Source: Escherichia coli 042 (GTDB taxonomy: Bacteria; Pseudomonadota; Gammaproteobacteria; Enterobacterales; Enterobacteriaceae). Taken from it: 64,000 nucleotides of DNA. The DNA lies in assembly GCF_000027125.1 (NCBI RefSeq), contig NC_017626.1; one strand, written 5' to 3'. Below are positions 24,120-34,789 of this stretch, one piece after another; the stretch's first letter is position 1, and each line of letters starts with the position of its first letter. The position numbers were made by a program, and so were the translations under genes. The notes under the pieces were generated by a model. That model saw nothing but the letters and a program-made list of their open reading frames with translations, was not told the DNA's origin and did no database searches.

Positions 24120-25364
24120 ATGGCAAGAAAGGCGACCCCACTCACCACCACACAGATCAAAGCAGCTAAACCAGCGGAAAAAGAATACACCTTACAGGAT
24201 GGCGGCGGGCTTTTTCTCGTCATTAAGCCATCTGGTTCGAAACTATGGCGATTCAACTACTATCGACCATCGAACAAAAAACGAACAATCATTAGTTTGG
24301 GATCGCTCGATGAAGTCTCCCTGGCTGATGCCAGAAAACGCCGTAGCGAGTACAGGACGTTAATTGCGTCAGGGATTGACCCACAGCATCACGAGCGGCA
24401 AAAACGCGAAGCAGAGGCCAGAAGACAGGGCAACACGTTCGAAAATGTGGCCGCATCGTGGTACGAAATGAAAAAAAACCAGAATCTCGCCCACAATACG
24501 ATCAAGGACATCTGGCGCTCGCTAGAGAAATATGTATTCCCGTATATCGGAAACACACCGATAGATACTCTCACCGCTCGCCGCTTTGTTGAGATACTCA
24601 CGCCCATCAAGACACGTGGCAACCTGGAAACACTGAAACGCGTTTTACAGCGCATCAATGAAGTGATGGATTTTGCTGCCAACAGTGGACTGATTGACAT
24701 CAACACCGCTGCGAACGTCCGCAAGGCATTCCCTTCCCCCACCAAAAAACACATGCCAACCATCCGACCAGAACAACTACCGCAGCTAATGCACGATTTA
24801 TCGATCGCCAGCATAGAACGGCAAACCAGATTGCTGATTGAGTGGCAGTTGTTAACCGCAACCCGTCCAGCCGAAGCCTCCGCCGCACGGTGGGAAGAAA
24901 TCAACCTTGATGCGGCAACATGGACGATACCAGCCGGACGCATGAAGATGCGCCGTGATCATGTGATCCCTCTTTGCGCTCAGGCGATGGCAGTGCTTGA
25001 AGCCATGAAGCCGATTAGCGCACGAAGGGAGCATGTTTTCCCAAGTCTTAAAAATCCAGTGCAACCAATGAGCAGCCAGACAGCAAACGCAGCATTACGG
25101 CGAATGGGTTACACTGGTGTACTGGTATCTCACGGGCTACGCGCCATATTCAGCACAGCGGCGAACGAAGAAGGATTTGAGCCGGACGTAATCGAGGCCG
25201 CACTCGCACACGTGGACACGAACGAAGTTAGACGGGCATACAACCGAAGCAACTACCTGGAAAAACGTAAAGTGTTAATGTGCTGGTGGGGTGATTTTGT
25301 GGAAGCAGCCTCAACCGGAACAACCATCGCCAGCGGGCACAGGGGATTACGCGGAATAAAATAA
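24120..25364 (+). CDS. int: P4-family tyrosine integrase
   Basis: 414 aa; N-terminal arm-binding-type region (KEYTLQDGGGLFLVIKPSGSKLWRFNYY...), C-terminal catalytic region with HGLRAIFST and a tyrosine near the end (RAYNRSNY); adjacent to a tRNA gene in the same orientation. Confidence 0.85.
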   Translation: MARKATPLTTTQIKAAKPAEKEYTLQDGGGLFLVIKPSGSKLWRFNYYRPSNKKRTIISLGSLDEVSLADARKRRSEYRTLIASGIDPQHHERQKREAEARRQGNTFENVAASWYEMKKNQNLAHNTIKDIWRSLEKYVFPYIGNTPIDTLTARRFVEILTPIKTRGNLETLKRVLQRINEVMDFAANSGLIDINTAANVRKAFPSPTKKHMPTIRPEQLPQLMHDLSIASIERQTRLLIEWQLLTATRPAEASAARWEEINLDAATWTIPAGRMKMRRDHVIPLCAQAMAVLEAMKPISARREHVFPSLKNPVQPMSSQTANAALRRMGYTGVLVSHGLRAIFSTAANEEGFEPDVIEAALAHVDTNEVRRAYNRSNYLEKRKVLMCWWGDFVEAASTGTTIASGHRGLRGIK

Positions 25365-25377
25365 AATATTTAAAAAA

Positions 25378-25417
25378 TTATTGGTTCCTAATTGGTACCA
25401 ATTTGGAGCCAATTTGT
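25378..25417. promoter_or_regulatory. operator-like palindrome cluster in the int-alpA intergenic region
   Basis: ttattggttcctaattggtaccaatttggagccaatttg contains the perfect 14-bp palindrome aattggtaccaatt (25390-25403) flanked by CCAATT/AATTGG half-sites, in an AT-rich region upstream of alpA. Confidence 0.4.
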
Positions 25418-25616
25418 GTCTCTTTACTGTCTCATTTTGAGAAATATTTAAAATTCTTTTTATGTTAGAAAATTAAAAAATAACCAATCACATAACTCTT
25501 ATTAAATAATTCTTGACTTGCTTTTTTATAGATTTGTATTCTTTTTATATGTTTTTACATGTTTACCGTCATTTTCATTCAAAAAGCGGTATTTTACTGT
25601 CTATAGGAGAAATAAG

Positions 25617-25808
25617 ATGAGGGCTATTCTTTTACGACCAGAGGTCAAGGCCTTGCTACGCATTAAATCTGATTCAACCCTAACGGAGATGGTTAACAAA
25701 GGCGGGTTCCCCAAAGGATTCCGTATCGGGCTGCGTCGCATTGGCTGGTATGAAGATGAGGTACTCGCCTGGTTGAAAGAACGTGAGAGAGAAACTCGTG
25801 AAGCATAA
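25617..25808 (+). CDS. alpA: AlpA-family phage transcriptional regulator / excisionase-like HTH protein
   Basis: 63 aa from the ATG at 25617 with an AGGAGA ribosome-binding site; MRAILLRPEVKALLRIKSDSTLTEMVNKGGFPKGFRIGLRRIGWYEDEVLAWLKERE has the AlpA-like pattern (...IG.R.IGW.E.EV..WL). Confidence 0.7.
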   Translation: MRAILLRPEVKALLRIKSDSTLTEMVNKGGFPKGFRIGLRRIGWYEDEVLAWLKERERETREA

Positions 25809-26266
25809 GTGTGATTAACGCTGGCCTGATTACTATCAAGCAACAAAACAATTAAGAGAGAACATTATAAATACTGGCAAAAATGCCCAAACAGGGGCAG
25901 GTTTTCGTTCAACCATAAAAAATTATGGCTGATGTTATTATTCAGTTCAAACCGTACGAACGAATTAATTGAACTAATAGCACTTCCGTTTTAAACGGAA
26001 ACGTACAATCGCATAGCTTAAACGACAAAAGAAATATGTTGCTTACGAATAAAACAAAGGCGACCGCAGAGGGTCGCCAGAAGGCATATATTAAACTTGA
26101 ATGCATCGCCAACAATGCCATATTTCCGGCTGGTGAGCAATGTGATTTGTGTGGTGGGCACACCTTCAACACATCCGACCACATGAGCAAGAAAACGGGA
26201 TATACTCACCAAATCCCTTATAAAACGGGGATCGGGATTACCACCCCGCTGGAGTTAACGGCGATA

Positions 26267-26290
26267 CAGACGCGCCACGCGTCTTTTTTT
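26267..26290 (+). terminator. candidate intrinsic terminator inside the alpA-icd gap
   Basis: cagacgcgccacgcgtc followed by T7 (GC stem gacgcg/cgcgtc, short loop), preceded by further stem-loops at 26058-26079 and 26226-26248. Confidence 0.5.
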
Positions 26291-26454
26291 GTATCGACGC
26301 ACACGCACGCCTTATCAATGGTGGGCTGTATGGGGCTGACTTCGGTCAGGCTGGTTTCCGTTAACACCAGTTGTGGTAACCCTGTACAGTCCACCGCCAG
26401 CGAGCTTACCACCTCCTGCGGTGGGTATATCCCAACGTTAACGGAGGCTGCCAA

Positions 26455-26694
26455 ATGGCTACTATCCCTGCCCTCGCACATACTCAGAACGCCTTTATCT
26501 GGCGCTTTATCATCGTTAATCCGAGTGATTCCCGCGTCGTTCACGTCGTGGCGTCAACCGAACAGGAAGCGCGTAACCGTTGTCCGTCCGGTTGTGTTGC
26601 CGTATTCGCTGCCCGTATTCGTCAGGGGGTAAGTCATGCTCAAGCGATTCCAGATAACCGCACGCGCTGTAAATCATCAAGGCCACGTTATTGA
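26455..26694 (+). CDS. Icd-like (host cell division inhibitor-like) small phage protein
   Basis: 79-aa ORF with a GGAGG ribosome-binding site 8 nt upstream; MATIPALAHTQNAFIWRFIIVNPSDSRVVHVVASTEQEARNRCPSGCVAVFAARI resembles the Icd-like small-protein family as I remember it. The 3' end overlaps the next ORF by 58 nt in another frame, so the true C-terminus is uncertain. Confidence 0.5.
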   Translation: MATIPALAHTQNAFIWRFIIVNPSDSRVVHVVASTEQEARNRCPSGCVAVFAARIRQGVSHAQAIPDNRTRCKSSRPRY

Positions 26695-26821
26695 TATTCG
26701 GCAAAACGTGAACGCCACCAGCGTTAATGCAGCTATAGCAATATTGAAAGAAGAGTTAATCGGCTGTAGGTTCACGCAGGTGATGATCCGTGCCGTAGTT
26801 GAAGTGTCGACTGTTCATTAA
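26636..26821 (+). CDS. hypothetical small phage-island protein
   Basis: 61-aa ORF with a strong GGGGGTAAG ribosome-binding site; MLKRFQITARAVNHQGHVIDIRQNVNATSVNAAIAILKEELIG...; no function recognised. Confidence 0.45.
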   Translation: MLKRFQITARAVNHQGHVIDIRQNVNATSVNAAIAILKEELIGCRFTQVMIRAVVEVSTVH

Positions 26822-26860
26822 TCTCATTAATACAGCTTTAACAAAAACGTAATTCGACAA

Positions 26861-27148
26861 ATGAAAGCAAAAAATTCTGGCTTTACTGCCAGCGGTAAAA
26901 CTCGTCCTAAATTCATGCACGGCGATATTTACCGCGATAAATACGGCAGCACGGTAATGATTAAGGGCGTGAGTGAACGACGCATTACCTACCGCCGTGA
27001 AGGATACAAATATGACTGCGTGATGCCTGTTTATCAGTTCCAGCGTGATTTTACGCTGGTGGATCATCGTGAAACCGTAAATCAGAACCGTGCAGCAAGA
27101 TACATCCGCAAAATCTGCGAAATGATGGTTACTGGGGGCAAGAAATGA
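26861..27148 (+). CDS. hypothetical protein, translationally coupled to the primase gene
   Basis: 95-aa ORF whose TGA stop overlaps the ATG of the downstream 712-aa ORF (ATGA); basic protein; no recognisable domain. Confidence 0.4.
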   Translation: MKAKNSGFTASGKTRPKFMHGDIYRDKYGSTVMIKGVSERRITYRREGYKYDCVMPVYQFQRDFTLVDHRETVNQNRAARYIRKICEMMVTGGKK

Positions 27149-29283
27149 AACGCGCACCGAATTTAAAGCACCAGCCGAAAGACAAAATGACGGAGGTGAT
27201 TATCTTTGCGGGTAGTGATGCCTGGGCACATGCGAAAGAGTGGAGCGAATGGGCCGGAAAGCATATTGCGGCAGATGATACACATCCAGTTATTCTTGGA
27301 CCGGAACAACTGGCGAGTCTGGCAGACACGCAAATCATCGACAAAGGGCGCTATTACGTGCGCGTTTATCGTGCTGGTGAAATATCAGAGCAGCACCTTA
27401 CACAGATAGCGACACTGCTTGCAGTGGCGGGTGTGAAGGAGGCGCGTTGCTACCGCAGCTTTGTTGATCAGCAGCCGGAGGACTGGACACCGCGCATGGC
27501 TGGACTGAAGGATGATGCGGAACGCGGTAACAGTCTGGTGATCAACCTTCCGGCGAAGACAAATTTCACCGGAAATTATGATGACGAATTAAAGCCTCGT
27601 GTTGAAAGTCGCGTCGATGGTGTTTTCTGGGTAACGCCCAAAGTGGACAAGCAGTCAGGCGAAATTATCCGGCCTGAGACGTGGTTATGTTCTCCGCTTG
27701 AACTACTGGGAACAGGAACAATCGGCAAAGAGCATTACCGCGTGATGCGCTGGAAAAAACCAGCAAACCATGAGGTCATTACAATGGCGGTCCCGTGCGG
27801 AGGCATTGGTGACCGTGACGGCTGGCGGTTGCTGAAAGACCACGGCCTTAACGTGACGACCAACGGCAAATACAGGGCTATCCTGGCTGACTGGATGCAG
27901 TTAAGCGGAAACCATGAGGAATGGCAGTTAAGCACAACAACGGGGTGGCATTTTGGTGCGTACATCATGCCGGATGGTTCGATCATCGGTGAATCAGAGA
28001 AACCCATCCTGTTTACCGGAAAAACTGCCGCTGTTAATGGCTATTCCGTGGCGGGAACAGCGGAGGGCTGGCGCGATACCGTGGCACGGCTGGCTGGTGG
28101 TAATCCGTCCATGATGCTGGGTGTGGCGGTATCGCTATCTGCACCATTAATCGGGCTGGTGGGTGCTGACGGCTTCGGGGTTCATCTTTTTGAGCAATCA
28201 TCAGCAGGTAAAACCACCACACAGAACATTGCATCAAGTTTATGGGGAGAGCCGGACGCGCAACGGCTGACCTGGTACGGAACGGCGTTAGGTATCGCCA
28301 ACGAGGCCGAAGCACATAATGACGGGCTGTTACCCCTGGATGAAATAGGCCAGGCCGGAAACGCACGGGAAGTGTCCACGTCGGCTTATACGCTGTTTAA
28401 CGGTTCGGGGAAATTACAGGGGGCGAAGGACGGCGGCAACAGGGAGATAAAACACTGGCGAACAGTGGCAATCAGTACCGGAGAAATGGACGTTGAAACA
28501 TTCCTCAAAAGTGAGGGGATAAAAGTCAAGGCTGGGCAGCTTGTCCGGTTGCTTAACGTGCCGATGGAGAAGTCCACGCAGTTTCACGAATACAGCACAG
28601 GAAAGGCGCACGCAGACGCGTTAAAGGATGCCTGGACAGCAAATCACGGGGCGGCAGGTCGTGAGTGGATTAAATGGCTAGCAGCCCACCAACAGGAGGC
28701 TAAGGACACGGTAAGGGCATGCCGTGAACGGTGGCGCAACCTGATACCGGAGAGCTACGGCGAACAGGTTCACCGCGTAGGGGAACGATTCGCCATACTG
28801 GAGGCCGCGCTTGTGCTGTCAGGCAATGTTACGGGCTGGGATGTTCAGGCGTGCCGTGATGCCATTCAGCATAACTTTAATGCCTGGGTGAAGGAGTTCG
28901 GCACGGGTAACAAGGAACACAGGCAGATTATTGAACAGGCAGAGGCATTTCTTACTGCCTACGGCATGAGCAGGTTTGCGCCTGTCAATTATGACCCTGC
29001 AAGCCTGCCGATTTCAGAACTGTACGGCTACAGGGAAAGCGAGGGGCGTTACGGTGAGCCTGTTTTGTTTTACGTCCTGCCGGAGCCATTTAAATCGCAT
29101 GTGGCGAAGGGATTTAACAAGGATGCCGTAGCAAGAGCCCTTCACGAAGCCGGAATGCTGAAAAAGCCAGCCAGCGGGGAAGGATGGCAAATCAGAACAC
29201 CACGTCTTAAGCACATGAAGGGGGCACGACTAAGGGTGTACGGCCTTTTACTTGCACAGGATCATGATGATGAAGGTGGTTAA
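27145..29283 (+). CDS. primase/helicase-like replication initiation protein (P4 alpha-like; P-loop NTPase core)
   Basis: 712-aa ORF; central Walker A-like FEQSSAGKTTTQN followed by acidic DE-type motifs (LPLDEIG); the size and the iterons immediately downstream fit a satellite replication protein. An alternative start at 27187 (MTEVIIFAG) is possible. Confidence 0.65.
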   Translation: MKRAPNLKHQPKDKMTEVIIFAGSDAWAHAKEWSEWAGKHIAADDTHPVILGPEQLASLADTQIIDKGRYYVRVYRAGEISEQHLTQIATLLAVAGVKEARCYRSFVDQQPEDWTPRMAGLKDDAERGNSLVINLPAKTNFTGNYDDELKPRVESRVDGVFWVTPKVDKQSGEIIRPETWLCSPLELLGTGTIGKEHYRVMRWKKPANHEVITMAVPCGGIGDRDGWRLLKDHGLNVTTNGKYRAILADWMQLSGNHEEWQLSTTTGWHFGAYIMPDGSIIGESEKPILFTGKTAAVNGYSVAGTAEGWRDTVARLAGGNPSMMLGVAVSLSAPLIGLVGADGFGVHLFEQSSAGKTTTQNIASSLWGEPDAQRLTWYGTALGIANEAEAHNDGLLPLDEIGQAGNAREVSTSAYTLFNGSGKLQGAKDGGNREIKHWRTVAISTGEMDVETFLKSEGIKVKAGQLVRLLNVPMEKSTQFHEYSTGKAHADALKDAWTANHGAAGREWIKWLAAHQQEAKDTVRACRERWRNLIPESYGEQVHRVGERFAILEAALVLSGNVTGWDVQACRDAIQHNFNAWVKEFGTGNKEHRQIIEQAEAFLTAYGMSRFAPVNYDPASLPISELYGYRESEGRYGEPVLFYVLPEPFKSHVAKGFNKDAVARALHEAGMLKKPASGEGWQIRTPRLKHMKGARLRVYGLLLAQDHDDEGG

Positions 29284-29308
29284 TCTCTCGCGTGTAGGTT
29301 TAAAAACT

Positions 29309-29443
29309 CTTGTCCCACCTGTCCCAACCTGTGAGAAACACACATAACATACTGAATTATATTGGGTAATATCAGAAAAAGTGGGACAAGAGCGGGACAA
29401 GTTAAGGTGATTTTGGGACAAGTTAGGAGCATTTTGGGACAAG
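29309..29443. repeat. iteron cluster 1 (GGGACAAG repeats), putative origin of replication
   Basis: Inverted copies CTTGTCCC at 29309-29316 and ctgtccca at 29319-29326, an AT-rich spacer, then four direct GGGACAAG copies at 29383-29390, 29394-29401, 29415-29422 and 29436-29443; immediately downstream of the primase gene. Confidence 0.6.
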
Positions 29444-29519
29444 TCAGCAGGCGTTATTTTTTGCCTGGCTGGTGGACATTAAAAATCCAACCAACATTTA
29501 AAACCGGAGAGCAGACAAT

Positions 29520-29945
29520 ATGACGGCACAAATATCAGCTTACGGGCGGTTGGTGGCTGACCCGCAGTTAAAAACCACCAGCAAGGGAACACCAATGGCG
29601 CTGGTGAGTATGGCTGTTCCCCTTCCGTGCAGTCAGGCATATGACGGAACAGCGACGATGTGGTTATCCGTCCTGGCGTTTGGCAGACAGGCCGATGCAC
29701 TGGCAAAACACCAGAAAGGCGAACTGGTGAGCATGGCGGGTAACATGCAGATAAGCCAGTGGACAGACCAGAACGGGGAAATGCGGCAGGGCTGGCAGGT
29801 CATCGCAGACAGCGTAATCAGTGCGCGAACCGTGCGACCAGGAGGCAGGAAAGGACAGCAAGGGCAGGCTACTGACGCACTGAACAGAACAAAGCAGCAG
29901 ACGGGCCAGCAGGATGACCCGTATGAGGACGAAATACCATTTTAA
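29520..29945 (+). CDS. ssb: single-stranded DNA-binding protein (SSB-like, OB fold)
   Basis: 141 aa; SSB-like layout with conserved aromatic positions, a Gly/Gln-rich linker and the acidic tail ...DDPYEDEIPF that resembles the E. coli SSB C-terminal DDDIPF. Confidence 0.75.
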   Translation: MTAQISAYGRLVADPQLKTTSKGTPMALVSMAVPLPCSQAYDGTATMWLSVLAFGRQADALAKHQKGELVSMAGNMQISQWTDQNGEMRQGWQVIADSVISARTVRPGGRKGQQGQATDALNRTKQQTGQQDDPYEDEIPF

Positions 29946-29980
29946 CTGCCAGTGGATTCACTAACAGAGGTTAACAAATA

Positions 29981-30517
29981 ATGACTACACTGACTATTAG
30001 CAGAAAACCGAAAGGCATTTACGGCATACCACAGAAAAAGACACAGACGACACAGCAGCAGGATAAAACCACATCAGCGCATAAAGTGATACCCGGCAAT
30101 CAGAACGCACAGCAGAGCCGCAAACAGAAGCCCACAGGGGCGACACCGTGGCGGCATATGACCAAACGCCAGGGCAAAAACCGCAGGCGCGTTAACCGTC
30201 TTATTGAACTATGGCCTGAATTATTCAGCCTGGAATCACCGAAGCCGCTTAAGGTAGGAATATTTGAAGACCTGATACAGGATATTGCCGTCAGGGCGCT
30301 GGCTTTTGGGTCAGGGGCATTACGTGCGGCGCTAGCATCTTATGCTCATTCTCCGCGTTATTACCGTGCCTTAATGGCTGGTGGCGTGCGTTACGATCTG
30401 AATAGCCAGCCATGCGGCGAGGTGACACAACAGGAACAGCAGGACGCGGAAGCACGACTGATGGCACTGAAAGAGAAGCGCAAACGTAAGTCGAACAAGG
30501 AGCAAGCTGGCGTATGA
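29981..30517 (+). CDS. FinO/ProQ-family RNA-chaperone-like protein
   Basis: 178 aa; basic Q/K-rich N-terminus, then LIELWPELFSLESPKPLKVGIFEDL...RYYRALMAGGVRYDLNSQPCGEV, which resembles the FinO/ProQ N-terminal domain signature; assignment from memory only. Confidence 0.5.
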   Translation: MTTLTISRKPKGIYGIPQKKTQTTQQQDKTTSAHKVIPGNQNAQQSRKQKPTGATPWRHMTKRQGKNRRRVNRLIELWPELFSLESPKPLKVGIFEDLIQDIAVRALAFGSGALRAALASYAHSPRYYRALMAGGVRYDLNSQPCGEVTQQEQQDAEARLMALKEKRKRKSNKEQAGV

Positions 30518-30798
30518 GTATGATTCACGACAGCAAAGCGGAAGATCTGGAGGCTAAAGGCCTGTACCGGAGAGCGGCAGCCCGATGGGCTGAGGTCATG
30601 CAACAGGTGAACACCGATAAGGAGCGCGAACAGGCAGTAAAGCGTCGCGCGAAATGTATCCACAAGGCAGCACGTTCGCCCGTCATGCTGGATAATTTCG
30701 GGGGCTTGAGAGAGGCAGCAAACCGCACACAGGCGGATATGGGGATAGAAATCGCAAAATCTGTCTGGCGGAACTACCAGACAGACAAGGTTTTATAG
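30514..30798 (+). CDS. PerC-family transcriptional regulator-like protein
   Basis: 94 aa; AEDLEAKGLYRRAAARWAEVM matches the PerC/Pch-type motif (AE.LE..GLWRRAA.RW..VM); start overlaps the previous stop (ATGA coupling). Confidence 0.55.
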   Translation: MSMIHDSKAEDLEAKGLYRRAAARWAEVMQQVNTDKEREQAVKRRAKCIHKAARSPVMLDNFGGLREAANRTQADMGIEIAKSVWRNYQTDKVL

Positions 30799-30854
30799 TG
30801 GCAGTTCTGCATTATTTTTTGTGTTATTGAGTTGTAGAGCGTTTCAGGAGTTTT

Positions 30855-31064
30855 TTGAATCACATGAACGTTTCGCTGGTGGATATTCTTGACAAGTTGC
30901 AGCCAGGCCGACGCGTGCCAGCTCGCCGCAGTGCCTGGCATCTTCCGTACATCGTCTTTCTCGAACGGCGCGGAAACGATTTGATTGCGTTGAATCCCGT
31001 CACAAAGGATAGCGTTACGCTATCTCCTGAGAGTCTACTAGCCACAGACTGGGAGTACTGCTAA
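30855..31064 (+). CDS. hypothetical protein
   Basis: 69-aa ORF with a CAGGAG ribosome-binding-like site upstream; last ORF before the ~0.9 kb non-coding iteron region; no recognisable motif. Confidence 0.3.
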   Translation: MNHMNVSLVDILDKLQPGRRVPARRSAWHLPYIVFLERRGNDLIALNPVTKDSVTLSPESLLATDWEYC

Positions 31065-31597
31065 ACACAAACGCATCGAGGGTGCTGGCGTGTTGCCAGC
31101 CCCACCCCCTCCGAAATGATCCCCCAAAAAGTGCAAAATGATCCCCCATTAACGAACAGAAAACAAACAAAGAGCAACAAATAATCATTATTTACAATTC
31201 TTGACAAAAACACCCCCTATTTATAACCCTACCAAATTTAAAATTACATCTACAAAACAATAAGTTACAAAATCAGCAACGGATCATTTCGGAAAAAACG
31301 GTTAGTCCCTTTTTCGAAAAGGGATCATTTTGTTGCTTAAACTCATATGCGGATTACATATCAATACGCTAGTGATAGCCGTTCTGGAATGCCACAGAAA
31401 CGCGCTGTAATCGATTCTGGCGCAATTAGCTGTGCTAGGTAATGATTTACCTATCTGGGGATGTTGCGCACGTCTGGATTGCGTTACCACCGAAGATTGT
31501 GCGCATATGGTGGCTGTTACGGTGGCCTCCCGACAACGCAAAATTGCGGCGGCACAGTCGGTTTACCGCGCTAACACGGCTTGATTCACTCGCTCGA

Positions 31598-31717
31598 CTT
31601 GTCCCACCTCCCCCCCCAACTTGTCCCAAAACAGCCTAGACTTGTCCCACCTTACCTAATTTATTTCTAACAAAATCAATTTGTTAGGTGCTGGTGGGAC
31701 AGGTGGGACGGGTGGGA
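31598..31717. repeat. iteron cluster 2 (CTTGTCCC x3 and GGTGGGAC x3 flanking an AT-rich spacer), putative second cis-replication site
   Basis: CTTGTCCC at 31598-31605, 31618-31625 and 31640-31647; inverted GGTGGGAC(A/G)G at 31692-31699, 31701-31708 and 31710-31717; followed by (TA)n at 31729-31740. Confidence 0.6.
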
Positions 31718-31998
31718 CGGGTGGTTTTGTATATATATATACGAAAAATTGCATTCAGGAGGGGGGCGAAATTCCTGCAATCCATTACTTATGGAACTGT
31801 CCGCCCCGTCAAATTTTTACGCCCGCGCAATTAAAAAAATGCGTCACGCAGGTGGGCATGATGCCGATATGCTTGTCGGGTTCAGCTTTTTAAGGCGGCT
31901 GTAGATGTCAGGTTATCCGTGCTCATCCACCAGCCAGCTTCATAGCGGATAGCCGGAAAATGGTAACGGTTAAAGCTGTACATTTTTGCAGCAAATCA

Positions 31999-32023
31999 TT
32001 TTAGTTATACGTTTAGATATACG
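31999..32023. repeat. right boundary direct repeat (putative attR)
   Basis: ttttagttatacgtttagatatacg, 23 of 25 identical to 24034-24058. Confidence 0.5.
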
Positions 32024-32103
32024 ATTTCAAAACTCAATTAATCTACATCTTTAAAATCATGCAGTTACAGAATCAATTAAACTACTCTCGTGGCCAAAAA
32101 TCC

Positions 32104-32197: not shown

Positions 32198-34789
32198 TCA
32201 GAACGTCCAGACCACACCCGCCTGAGTATTCCACGGCGATTCTACCCCTGCGCCATTGCCATAACTGACAGACAAATGACCGCTTAACGTCGGGGTAAAC
32301 GATGACCTTATCCCAGCCTGATAAACGCCACTGGTTCCAGCCACATCATTATTAAATTTGCCATCGTCATTAACTTTCACCTGGTTAGAATCGGCGTATT
32401 CCTGACGCACGGCGGCTTTCAGCCAGGGTTCCAGCGTCGTACCGTTTTGCAGGTCCATGTGATAGCTTACCGCCGTTCCCGCTTCAGCCCGTAATATGCG
32501 GGTATTTCCCACATCCGCGCGCATGCCGTTTGATAACGTGTAGTCCTGACCATCAGTGGTAAAGCCGGTAAAGGCCAGATAGGGTCTAACACTCCACAAT
32601 CCGTCAACCCAACGGAACCCGCTCTCGACATGAGCACCCGCGCCGTTACTATTGTAATCGCCAAACGCTGTTGCCCCATTACTCATCTTGCCATGGATGG
32701 TGTTGGCAAAACGGTCAACTTTCACCACTCCATCAACATAGGCACCGTTCTGATGCTCCCAACCGGCATAAGCCCCCAGGGTGTAGCTATCGATATTGCC
32801 TTTGCCGCCGCGATCAAAACCAATATCAGAATGAGAGTAACCAAAGAACAAGCCGCGAATTGTGCTGCTTTCTTCACGGGAGAAACGGCTATCGATACCG
32901 AGCGTCAGGCCCGTCAATGTTTGCTCAAAGCCAGCTCCCGCATCAGTGGTCACGTTGTTGCGGGTGTTAATTGCCGAACTCCACATCGCCGTATCGTAAT
33001 TAACGCCTTTTACGCTACCAAGACGCTCACGCACGGTGTCCAGTTCTGCATCAAATACCAGCGGTTGTGCTGCCGCCATATTCAGCACATCAGTGGTTGA
33101 AGGGGTAATTTGCGCGCGATTCTCTGCCAGACTCCAGCTATGGTTGCCATTATCCAGCAAGGTATATTCATACGTACCGATATCAACAACGCCTCCGGCA
33201 TTGCCCAACGTAAATGCAGCATCACCGCCGCCCGTTGTTACCAGTGTAAGGCTATCTCCTGCTGCCGGGCTGGCACCGGTGTCCGTCACGAATATTTTGA
33301 AATCACCTGTTGCCTGACCGGTGACGTTGAGCTGATCGCTCTGATGATTAGCCATATCGGTACGCATATAAAAATTGCCGTTTCCCGACAGGGTATTGGT
33401 GGTCAACGTAATGAAATTTTCCGCACTTGCCGTCACTGATGAACGAGTCACTGGCTCAGCCATCATAATCACATTTGCGCCGGACATCGCAAGGTTGGCT
33501 AAGTTGAGGCGAGTGTTTTGGTTCGTCGTACTGTTATCGGCAATGATGGTCCATGCGCTATTTTCGAGCGAAACATCCGCTTTGCTGGTATCCACGGCAC
33601 CATGCGTTCTAAAAGAAGCGCCCTCAGAAACCACGACCTTACCCACCAACATAGCGGGTGCATAATTTATTTGCGGCTTCATGACCTCAAGAATGCCATC
33701 ATTCCCTCTGACTGAAACGTTAACCATTGTGCCAGCCCAGACATTAGCGCGACCATTGTTGATAACCATATTTTCAGAGATGGCTTTAGAGGAATACGTT
33801 ATACTTCCATTCTGATCTGATCGACCGAGATCATATACCGCATTTGCCTGCACTCTCGTACCAGTATCCTTTCCCAGCGATTGCATAGTGGCATGCTCAT
33901 CAAGGATAGTATCAATGGCCTGCGTGTCCTCCATAACAATGAGCCCGGAACCATCATCCAGTTCATAATTTTTTGACACACCATCTTTTATACTAAATTG
34001 GCCTTTACTGTTTGTACCACTCACTTCCAGCGCATTCGTTGAGACAATTAATTGTCCGCCTGCTTTTTTATCAACGCCAGTTGCAGTCCCGCCATCCATA
34101 ACCTCCAGTAAGCCGCCACTATCCACAGTGGTATTATAAGCGAAGTCATTTTCTTCAACTCGCAAACTTCCGCCGTTTTCCAACAGCATATTATTAGCAA
34201 TACCATCCTTGATATCGAACTGACCGAGACGGTTTGTTCCGAATACCTCCATGGCCCGCGTGGTTGTTTTAATCGCACCGCCGGCTTTCTGATCTACCGC
34301 AAATGCTAATCCCCCCTCTTTAACCTCCAGTAATCCTCCCTTTTCGATAGCGGCAAAGACGGTAATCCCATCTTTTTCAATAATTAAGCGCCCGCCTTTA
34401 ATGGTGGTATCATTCGCTGCGCCATAAACCTGTAGCACACCATTATTAAGGGTAGTCTGGTTTGCCGCGCCACCCATTTGAACAATTTGATAACCGTCAT
34501 TTAATACTGAGTATTCTGCGGTGCCATTCATTTCAATGTACTGATACCCTCCGTTAATTTCAGTATTACTACTTACACCAAATTCTTTTATATGCTGTTC
34601 TCCGCCAGGATTGATTTTCGTATTATTGGCGGTCCCATAAACCAGCTGGATATCTTTTTCCAGGACAACACCATCAACTGTCTCACCATACTCAACAGTT
34701 GATGCCAATGCTATGGGTGAATATAACGCTGTAGCCACCAGAACAGATATTGCGGAACGACAAAGAGAAACAGAACCAGATTGATGCAT
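32198..34789 (-). CDS. yejO: AIDA-I-type autotransporter adhesin YejO (apparently intact)
   Basis: 863-aa ORF; signal peptide, Gly/Asn/Thr-rich repetitive passenger (repeats of ...GG.L.V..GG.A.....), C-terminal beta-barrel ending in the aromatic residues ...VVWTF; located between proL and narP. Confidence 0.85.
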   Translation of the reverse strand: MHQSGSVSLCRSAISVLVATALYSPIALASTVEYGETVDGVVLEKDIQLVYGTANNTKINPGGEQHIKEFGVSSNTEINGGYQYIEMNGTAEYSVLNDGYQIVQMGGAANQTTLNNGVLQVYGAANDTTIKGGRLIIEKDGITVFAAIEKGGLLEVKEGGLAFAVDQKAGGAIKTTTRAMEVFGTNRLGQFDIKDGIANNMLLENGGSLRVEENDFAYNTTVDSGGLLEVMDGGTATGVDKKAGGQLIVSTNALEVSGTNSKGQFSIKDGVSKNYELDDGSGLIVMEDTQAIDTILDEHATMQSLGKDTGTRVQANAVYDLGRSDQNGSITYSSKAISENMVINNGRANVWAGTMVNVSVRGNDGILEVMKPQINYAPAMLVGKVVVSEGASFRTHGAVDTSKADVSLENSAWTIIADNSTTNQNTRLNLANLAMSGANVIMMAEPVTRSSVTASAENFITLTTNTLSGNGNFYMRTDMANHQSDQLNVTGQATGDFKIFVTDTGASPAAGDSLTLVTTGGGDAAFTLGNAGGVVDIGTYEYTLLDNGNHSWSLAENRAQITPSTTDVLNMAAAQPLVFDAELDTVRERLGSVKGVNYDTAMWSSAINTRNNVTTDAGAGFEQTLTGLTLGIDSRFSREESSTIRGLFFGYSHSDIGFDRGGKGNIDSYTLGAYAGWEHQNGAYVDGVVKVDRFANTIHGKMSNGATAFGDYNSNGAGAHVESGFRWVDGLWSVRPYLAFTGFTTDGQDYTLSNGMRADVGNTRILRAEAGTAVSYHMDLQNGTTLEPWLKAAVRQEYADSNQVKVNDDGKFNNDVAGTSGVYQAGIRSSFTPTLSGHLSVSYGNGAGVESPWNTQAGVVWTF

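Follow-up and report, generated by a model that had tools for sequence, protein, structure and literature searches.

We analyzed a 64,000-nucleotide stretch of DNA from Escherichia coli 042 (contig NC_017626.1, hereafter the window) and within it the gene rep, an open reading frame (ORF) of 712 amino acids (aa) at 27145-29283 on the plus strand. We conclude that its product, Rep, is a hexameric helicase with origin specificity that loads itself; it is of the DUF927, MCM-like type (superfamily 6, SF6) and is encoded by a small E. coli phage-satellite island of the phage-inducible chromosomal island (PICI) type. We put the probability of this reading at roughly 0.82. Rep would be the Gram-negative counterpart of two staphylococcal proteins, Rep of the staphylococcal pathogenicity island (SaPI) SaPIbov1 and Cch of the staphylococcal cassette chromosome SCCmec, and a DUF927-type allele of the PICI protein Pri-Rep; the family itself is already known. 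The ORF starts with ATG, ends with the stop codon included in the above coordinates, and is full length and intact. In RefSeq the identical coordinates, on a 99.9%-identical E. coli chromosome, are named 'DUF927 domain-containing protein', and 99.9% identity was also found in three further genomes from different hosts. On our reading this generic label would give way to a specific role, that of a helicase which loads itself at its own origin in a Gram-negative phage satellite.

The relationship of Rep to replicative helicases was observed in both sequence and structure. The only Pfam match was DUF927 at aa 169-436 (1e-46, 160.2 bits, cut-off 22.6), while the whole MCM-like AAA+ helicase core spans aa ~145-606. 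An initial annotation, made from the sequence alone, had described a replication initiator with a central P-loop, SSAGKTTT, and no motif that could be named in the N- and C-terminal parts. We read the P-loop from the translation as the Walker A motif (aa 352-359, nt 28198-28221), and Pfam likewise named nothing outside DUF927. Among the profiles which that annotation had listed for a search, DUF927 matched and D5_N, PriCT, Prim-Pol and Primase_C did not; as Pfam gives DUF927 only, neither D5_N nor superfamily 3 (SF3) domains are in Rep. The SCCmec Cch1 helicase was a sub-threshold match in NCBIfam. When the PDB was searched by sequence, we obtained the SaPIbov1 initiator-helicase (8TCH, 9e-15) and Cch (5DGK, 7e-4).

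Structure prediction, also suggested by the initial annotation, gave the same relatives. The AlphaFold2 model of Rep was built on 150 relatives and had a mean pLDDT (predicted local distance difference test) of 93.4. In Foldseek it was closest to Cch (5DGK; E 8e-24, target-normalised template modelling (TM) score 0.78, 586 aligned columns) and to SaPIbov1 Rep (8TCH; E 4e-22, TM 0.71 on the target), with MCM, BrxL and poxvirus E5 far behind (~1e-6 to 1e-4). The top relatives are thus replication proteins, as the call of a replication initiator had implied. Cch carries DUF927 and is akin to SaPIbov1 Rep (PMC7581432; PMC9371898). The SaPI Reps are helicases that load themselves, and they use a C-terminal winged-helix domain to read 6-12 iterons directly downstream of rep around an AT-rich centre (PMC7581432; PMC9371898). 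Across the 150 relatives the residues G355, K356, D399, E400, S444, G446, E447 and R468 are near-invariant, and all of them are present in Rep; R468 is a candidate arginine finger. The family is large (10,524 representatives at 50% clustering with E ≤ 1e-3). Compared with an 82%-identical relative, dN/dS (the ratio of nonsynonymous to synonymous substitution rates) was 0.24 for the N-terminal domain, 0.12 for the core and 0.10 for the C-terminus.

An AAA+ ATPase of this size might also serve something other than replication, for instance phage defence, as a BrxL-like effector among the cargo of the island. Foldseek did match BrxL and further AAA+ rings (E 2e-6 to 1e-4), and related islands hold large cargo genes of unknown function. 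The BrxL matches, however, fall short of those of Cch and SaPIbov1 Rep by about 17 orders of magnitude, with a TM score of ~0.25, and the Lon-like domain is absent from Rep. Moreover, rep occupies a conserved replication-module slot, and the iteron origin behind it covaries with its C-terminus, as described below. We consider a non-replicative role very improbable.

The origin lies directly behind the gene. The sequence GGGACAAG is present in eight copies in the window, against 1.4 expected, and eight copies were reached in none of 100 shuffles. Five copies are located right behind the rep stop codon (29309-29443) and three further downstream (31598-31648); when degenerate copies (GGGACRR) are counted, there are six sites per cluster. 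The consensus of the iterons is (T/G)GGGACAAG, and the first one begins 26 bp past the stop codon. We refer to the two clusters as origin halves A and B. Half A has an inverted pair of iterons (29310, 29319) spaced by 9 bp, which a 54-bp spacer with 68.5% A+T separates from four direct iterons (29383, 29394, 29415, 29436) that follow one another at 11, 21 and 21 bp. Half B consists of three inverted iterons (31599, 31621, 31642; ~21-bp spacing), a 40-bp spacer of 75% A+T and three direct degenerate iterons (31696, 31705, 31714; 9-bp spacing), followed by a (TA)7 run. The A+T content of the island overall is 51%. A C8 run is also found in the half B region, at 31611-31618. SaPI origins, located immediately 3' of rep, have an AT-rich centre that is flanked on either side by at least two opposed iterons (PMC9371898; PMC7581432), and the layout of the window origin agrees with this rule.

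Most relatives have twelve contiguous sites with the strand pattern --+++++--+++. Their offsets from the stop codon are near fixed, whatever the sequence of the iteron (26, 35, 99, 110, 131, 152, 191, 214, 235, 288, 297 and 306). The first six sites of the window stand at these canonical offsets; half A is complete, and the remaining six sites are displaced. Half B is homologous to half B of locus L003 (8345-8486), which is adjacent to half A there. Half A alone was observed in 21 other loci, and in the related locus L002 no second origin half was found within 5.7 kb downstream. A promoter scan of 29150-29600 gave no promoter-like site; the sole terminator-like site in the scan was on the minus strand, inside ssb.

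Comparison with L002 indicates which part of Rep may read the iterons. Over aa 1-455 Rep of L002 does not differ from the window protein (100% identity); identity is ~96% up to aa 600 and ~35% beyond. The iteron of L002 is TAACCCGCA, arranged exactly as in window half A: an inverted pair 9 bp apart is separated by an AT spacer from four direct iterons, which are spaced by 11, 21 and 21 bp. Homology between the two DNAs ends at 28950 and restarts at 29498; the block in between (window 28951-29497, L002 7807-8315) is non-homologous, and its flanks are 93% and 82% identical. Therefore the C-terminal codons (aa 603-712) and half A differ as one block of ~550 bp. Judged from sequence, this suggests that the reading part of rep and the origin are exchanged as a linked cassette.

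The same relationship was observed in a comparison set of 80 loci from IMG/VR and E. coli. Seven iteron types are present in the set (GGGACAAG, GGGACRAC, GGGAYAA, TAACCCGCA, TAACCCAC, TGAACCAAC and TGAACCACG). In every case the iteron type follows the C-terminal sequence class; it is not predicted by the helicase core. Wherever two loci have C-terminal identity of 60% or more, their iteron superclass is the same (1186/1186 pairs), and iterons differ in all 335 pairs that have at least 90% core identity but less than 60% C-terminal identity. This covariation makes it very probable that Rep recognises the GGGACAAG iterons, as had been presumed from the outset. The origin-specificity module would comprise aa ~603-712, that is the last ~110 aa, with aa 477-606 belonging to the ATPase lid that stays with the core. 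The initial annotation had assigned iteron binding to the C-terminal ~250 aa; a specificity domain does exist there, of only ~100-110 aa, and the remainder (aa 477-606) is the AAA+ helical lid. As for its fold, aa 640-703 of the model have a beta-alpha-alpha-beta topology, and 18 of 40 family C-termini matched Pfam PF18662 (HTH_56, 'Cch helix-turn-helix domain').

The N-terminal part had initially been taken for a putative primase domain of ~300 aa. In the AlphaFold2 model this region is not one domain: aa 1-133 form a separate, four-stranded alpha/beta orphan domain, a disordered linker (aa 134-143) joins it to the core, and what follows is the helicase's own N-terminal tier. Relatives of Rep have three architectures, namely ~710 aa (the window type), ~600 aa without the N-domain, and ~900 aa with Zn_Ribbon_Prim and Toprim_3 or with regions like those of archaeo-eukaryotic primases (AEP). 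Rep might thus be a bifunctional primase-helicase, with the N-terminal part making primers as in P4 alpha, SaPI5 PriRep and the ~900-aa DUF927 relatives. PHROG families 1139, 8841 and 864 carry the labels 'DNA primase' or 'primase/helicase', NCBI gives the name 'DNA primase' to N-domain fragments, and the long relatives have Zn_Ribbon_Prim and Toprim_3 ahead of the same core. The domain itself, however, gave no support for this. We found no primase, Toprim, AEP, Prim-Pol, PriCT or Primase_C match in Rep among Pfam and NCBIfam at E ≤ 1. BLASTP detected no similarity of the N-domain to the Toprim region of the ~900-aa relatives, hhalign of the two profiles gave a probability of 0.4%, and Foldseek against the PDB returned nothing significant (best E 0.057). 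The only invariant residues of the N-domain are G23, A26, P48, L56 and G78, none of them acidic, while the Toprim of the long relatives keeps invariant E42-G43, D89, D126 and D129. Rep also lacks the zinc ribbon (no Pfam match, a single Cys in aa 1-140) and the RNA-polymerase subdomain that DnaG-type primases have in their N-terminal part. Primase activity is unsupported, because BLAST, hhalign and Foldseek gave no similarity and no acidic residue is invariant. Rep probably does not act as a primase, we consider a bifunctional primase-helicase unlikely, and the NCBI name 'DNA primase' on N-domain fragments has no supporting motifs.

The N-domain is conserved (dN/dS as given above) and portable. 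Over aa 1-160 it shares 42% identity with the N-terminus of Pri-Rep from the E. coli PICI EcCICFT073, with no similarity beyond aa ~160, and it also heads an allele of the RepA/AAA_25 type in the same kind of island. It therefore leads the DUF927, D5/SF3 and RepA/AAA_25 types of Rep in E. coli PICIs (window 27145-27543; locus L085, 7242-7700; locus L086, 4501-4950). Genes that bear it are named DUF927, 'DNA primase family', 'helicase RepA family' or 'P4 family primase'. Of 5426 complete E. coli genomes, 1775 (about a third) contain DNA which resembles its coding sequence, at least in part. The database also contains several fusions of the rep N-domain to a single-stranded DNA-binding protein (SSB), apparently deletion products.

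The coordinates of rep, its domains, the origin halves and the neighbouring genes are collected in Table 1. Limits of the island were set by the empty K-12 site, because only an imperfect att repeat of ~17 bp was found (TCCTCTCGTGCCGACCA at 23899-23915, the 3' end of tRNA-Pro, versus TACTCTCGTGGCCAAAA at 32085-32101, the right end). The rightward order of elements is integrase, AlpA-family regulator, a stretch with isrK- and C4-like RNAs, an Icd-like ORF, a small ORF, DUF4222, rep, iterons, SSB, ProQ/FinO, PerC, a small ORF, iterons and attR. AlpA activates the PICI cycle in EcCICFT073 (PMC6092414). In gene content and order the island agrees with the PICI criteria of the same work (PMC6092414): it has int, alpA, unidirectional rightward genes, rep followed by the origin, and two iteron sets around an AT-rich region. 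The isrK and C4 matches lie directly 5' of the Icd-like ORF (26455), as in the c4-icd module of P1 and P7; the stretch is poor in ORFs, and RefSeq calls a pseudogene there.

Upstream, the rep ATG overlaps the stop codon of the 95-aa DUF4222 gene (ATGA, 27145-27148), and among the E. coli matches listed nearly all have a DUF4222 gene in this overlap with rep, with any type of helicase. An obligatory link between DUF4222 and the N-domain was considered and rejected: DUF4222 was detectable within 900 nt upstream in only 49 of 80 IMG/VR loci, and some loci of the long type have DUF4222. Downstream, the acidic IPF tip of the island SSB resembles that of E. coli SSB. Such an acidic tip is the docking site of host replication and repair proteins. 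PerC homologues encoded by PICIs were reported to activate the locus of enterocyte effacement (LEE) pathogenicity island in some strains (PMC6092414). No capsid, packaging or terS genes were recognisable after perC, and the island is 8.2 kb long compared with ~10-15 kb for PICIs. Outside the island, the autotransporter gene yejO (32198-34789, minus strand) is an intact ORF of 863 aa, while the K-12 copy is a pseudogene interrupted by IS5.

Table 1. Features of the rep gene, its origin and the surrounding island (positions in the window).
Feature	Coordinates	Strand	Remarks
Island	~23916-32084		8.2 kb; next to tRNA-Pro(GGG) 23837-23913, between yejM and yejO
Tyrosine integrase	24120..25364	+	
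AlpA-family helix-turn-helix (HTH) regulator	25617..25808	+	
isrK Hfq-binding small RNA match	26213-26289	+	Rfam gathering level, 52.9 bits
C4 antisense RNA match	26314-26401	+	Rfam gathering level, 77.7 bits
DUF4222 gene	26861..27148	+	Positioned for translational coupling to rep
rep, whole ORF	27145..29283	+	Probable DUF927-type initiator-helicase
N-terminal alpha/beta domain, aa 1-133	27145..27543	+	Common to D5-type and RepA-type PICI Rep alleles
Flexible linker, aa 134-144	27544..27576	+	pLDDT <50 at aa 134-143
Helicase N-terminal tier, aa ~145-340	27577..28164	+	Beta-rich; N part of DUF927
AAA+ ATPase core, aa ~341-476	28165..28572	+	
Walker B, D399-E400	28339-28344	+	
AAA+ alpha-helical lid, aa ~477-606	28573..28962	+	Conserved with core, outside the exchanged cassette
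C-terminal HTH/winged-helix-like domain, aa ~607-705	28963..29259	+	Predicted origin-specificity module; Cch HTH_56 type at family level
Origin half A	29307..29444		Six iterons
Island SSB	29520..29945	+	First gene past half A; ends ...DDPYEDEIPF
ProQ/FinO-family (178 aa) and PerC-family (94 aa) genes	29981-30798		4-nt overlap; between the origin halves
Origin half B	31593..31745		Six iterons; 2.3 kb downstream of half A, past ssb-proQ-perC

Several points weigh against our interpretation. The pair counts given above are not independent, because the loci are interrelated, and the number of independent swap events is about three or four. The C-terminus of the window Rep itself falls short of HTH_56, and its profile aligned weakly with Cch residues 467-548 (E 1.2). 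Furthermore, this copy of the island may no longer replicate or be mobilised, because it is short and without capsid or packaging genes, a pseudogene is annotated in it, and its origin is split.

The last point can be taken further, in that rep might be a retired gene, intact in appearance and without a current role, in a decaying, non-replicating island remnant. The island lacks the capsid and head-decoration genes of EcCICFT073, RefSeq annotates an internal pseudogene in it, and half B is displaced to its right end, beside attR. We consider this unlikely too, if slightly less so than a primase function. The gene is full length with all motifs intact, and the near-identical copies in three other genomes come from different hosts. 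The dN/dS values (0.10-0.24) point in the same direction, though they reflect the history of the family rather than of this copy. As to the origin, half A is complete at the canonical offsets, and loci with half A only are found elsewhere, as noted above.

If Rep is an origin-specific helicase, the cycle might proceed as follows. The rightward operon would be switched on (in EcCICFT073 this is AlpA-dependent, PMC6092414), and Rep would be translated from the start codon that overlaps the DUF4222 stop. The C-terminal winged-helix-like domain (aa ~607-705) would bind the opposed (T/G)GGGACAAG iterons, as the covariation suggests. By analogy with SaPI Rep, oligomers on both sides of the A+T-rich spacer may then melt the spacer. 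The AAA+ ring, whose motifs (K356, D399/E400, R468) are present, would subsequently translocate as the replicative helicase; the activity and its polarity are what we infer. Priming and synthesis would be supplied by the host, possibly helped by the island SSB. We assign priming to the host because the island encodes no recognisable primase. The N-terminal 133 aa would serve as an accessory module, conserved and portable, and perhaps as an adaptor that connects Rep with a partner from the host, the phage or the island.

We also propose, tentatively and at well below even odds, a joint reading of these features. The N-domain would be a portable non-catalytic module which, on DUF927/SF6, D5/SF3 and RepA/AAA_25 helicases, performs a task independent of the helicase, such as connecting the initiator with the primase or replisome of the host, or with a factor of the helper phage or island such as the DUF4222 protein. 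The C-terminal domain and the origin would together form an exchangeable ~550-bp cassette of fixed geometry, and the split origin may work like ori and crr of P4.

In summary, this analysis goes beyond routine annotation in that it maps the specificity cassette, shows an origin geometry that stays fixed from one iteron type to another, and describes the split origin and an orphan N-domain common to three helicase classes. The seven iteron types listed above represent natural specificity swaps on near-identical cores, and so a ready-made system. It would be useful for studying how MCM-like initiators read DNA and the incompatibility of co-resident satellites.

Among known systems, P4 alpha combines the roles of initiator and helicase in one polypeptide; its N-terminal primase is active, its helicase is of the SF3/D5 type, and its C-terminal domain binds the origin. 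The P4 iterons are located at two separated loci, ori and crr. In layout, the split origin of the window resembles this arrangement. The ~900-aa DUF927 proteins (for example P0121 and P0126) have a homologous core and C-terminus (P0121 is 61% identical over aa 146-707); they hold a bona fide DnaG-type primase module, whereas Rep has the unrelated 133-aa domain in this place. SCCmec Cch is the best structural match of Rep, and its HTH domain (HTH_56) is the one matched by part of the C-termini in the family. However, Cch has not been described with such an iteron origin, has LP1413 as partner gene and is without the N-terminal alpha/beta domain.

SaPIbov1 Rep, which belongs to the 'Rep2' class of staphylococcal pathogenicity-island initiator-helicases, differs from Rep in several respects. 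The identity is only 17-18%, Rep has the additional 133-aa N-domain, and its iterons are of 8-9 bp at spacings of 9, 11 and 21 bp, compared with 5-6 bp in SaPIs. In the window, rep has no separate pri gene ahead of it, it resides in a Gram-negative host, and its origin is either duplicated or split. The two systems have in common the DUF927/SF6 MCM-like core, an own origin immediately 3' of the gene, opposed iterons around an AT-rich centre, and specificity in the C-terminus (PMC7581432, PMC9371898).

The replicon pri-rep-ori of EcCICFT073 was proven experimentally, its origin consists of two iteron sets flanking an AT-rich region, and four Pri-Rep alleles with a conserved origin organisation were already noted in E. 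coli PICIs (PMC6092414). The EcCICFT073 helicase is of another type (D5_N, DUF5906 and Pox_D5, SF3), its iteron is GGTAGAYA, and its PerC gene is followed by major capsid and decoration genes, which the window island does not have. The two islands nevertheless share the gene order (Icd-like ... DUF4222, Pri-Rep, ori, SSB, PerC), the N-domain, the overlap of DUF4222 with the start of rep and the iterons directly downstream.

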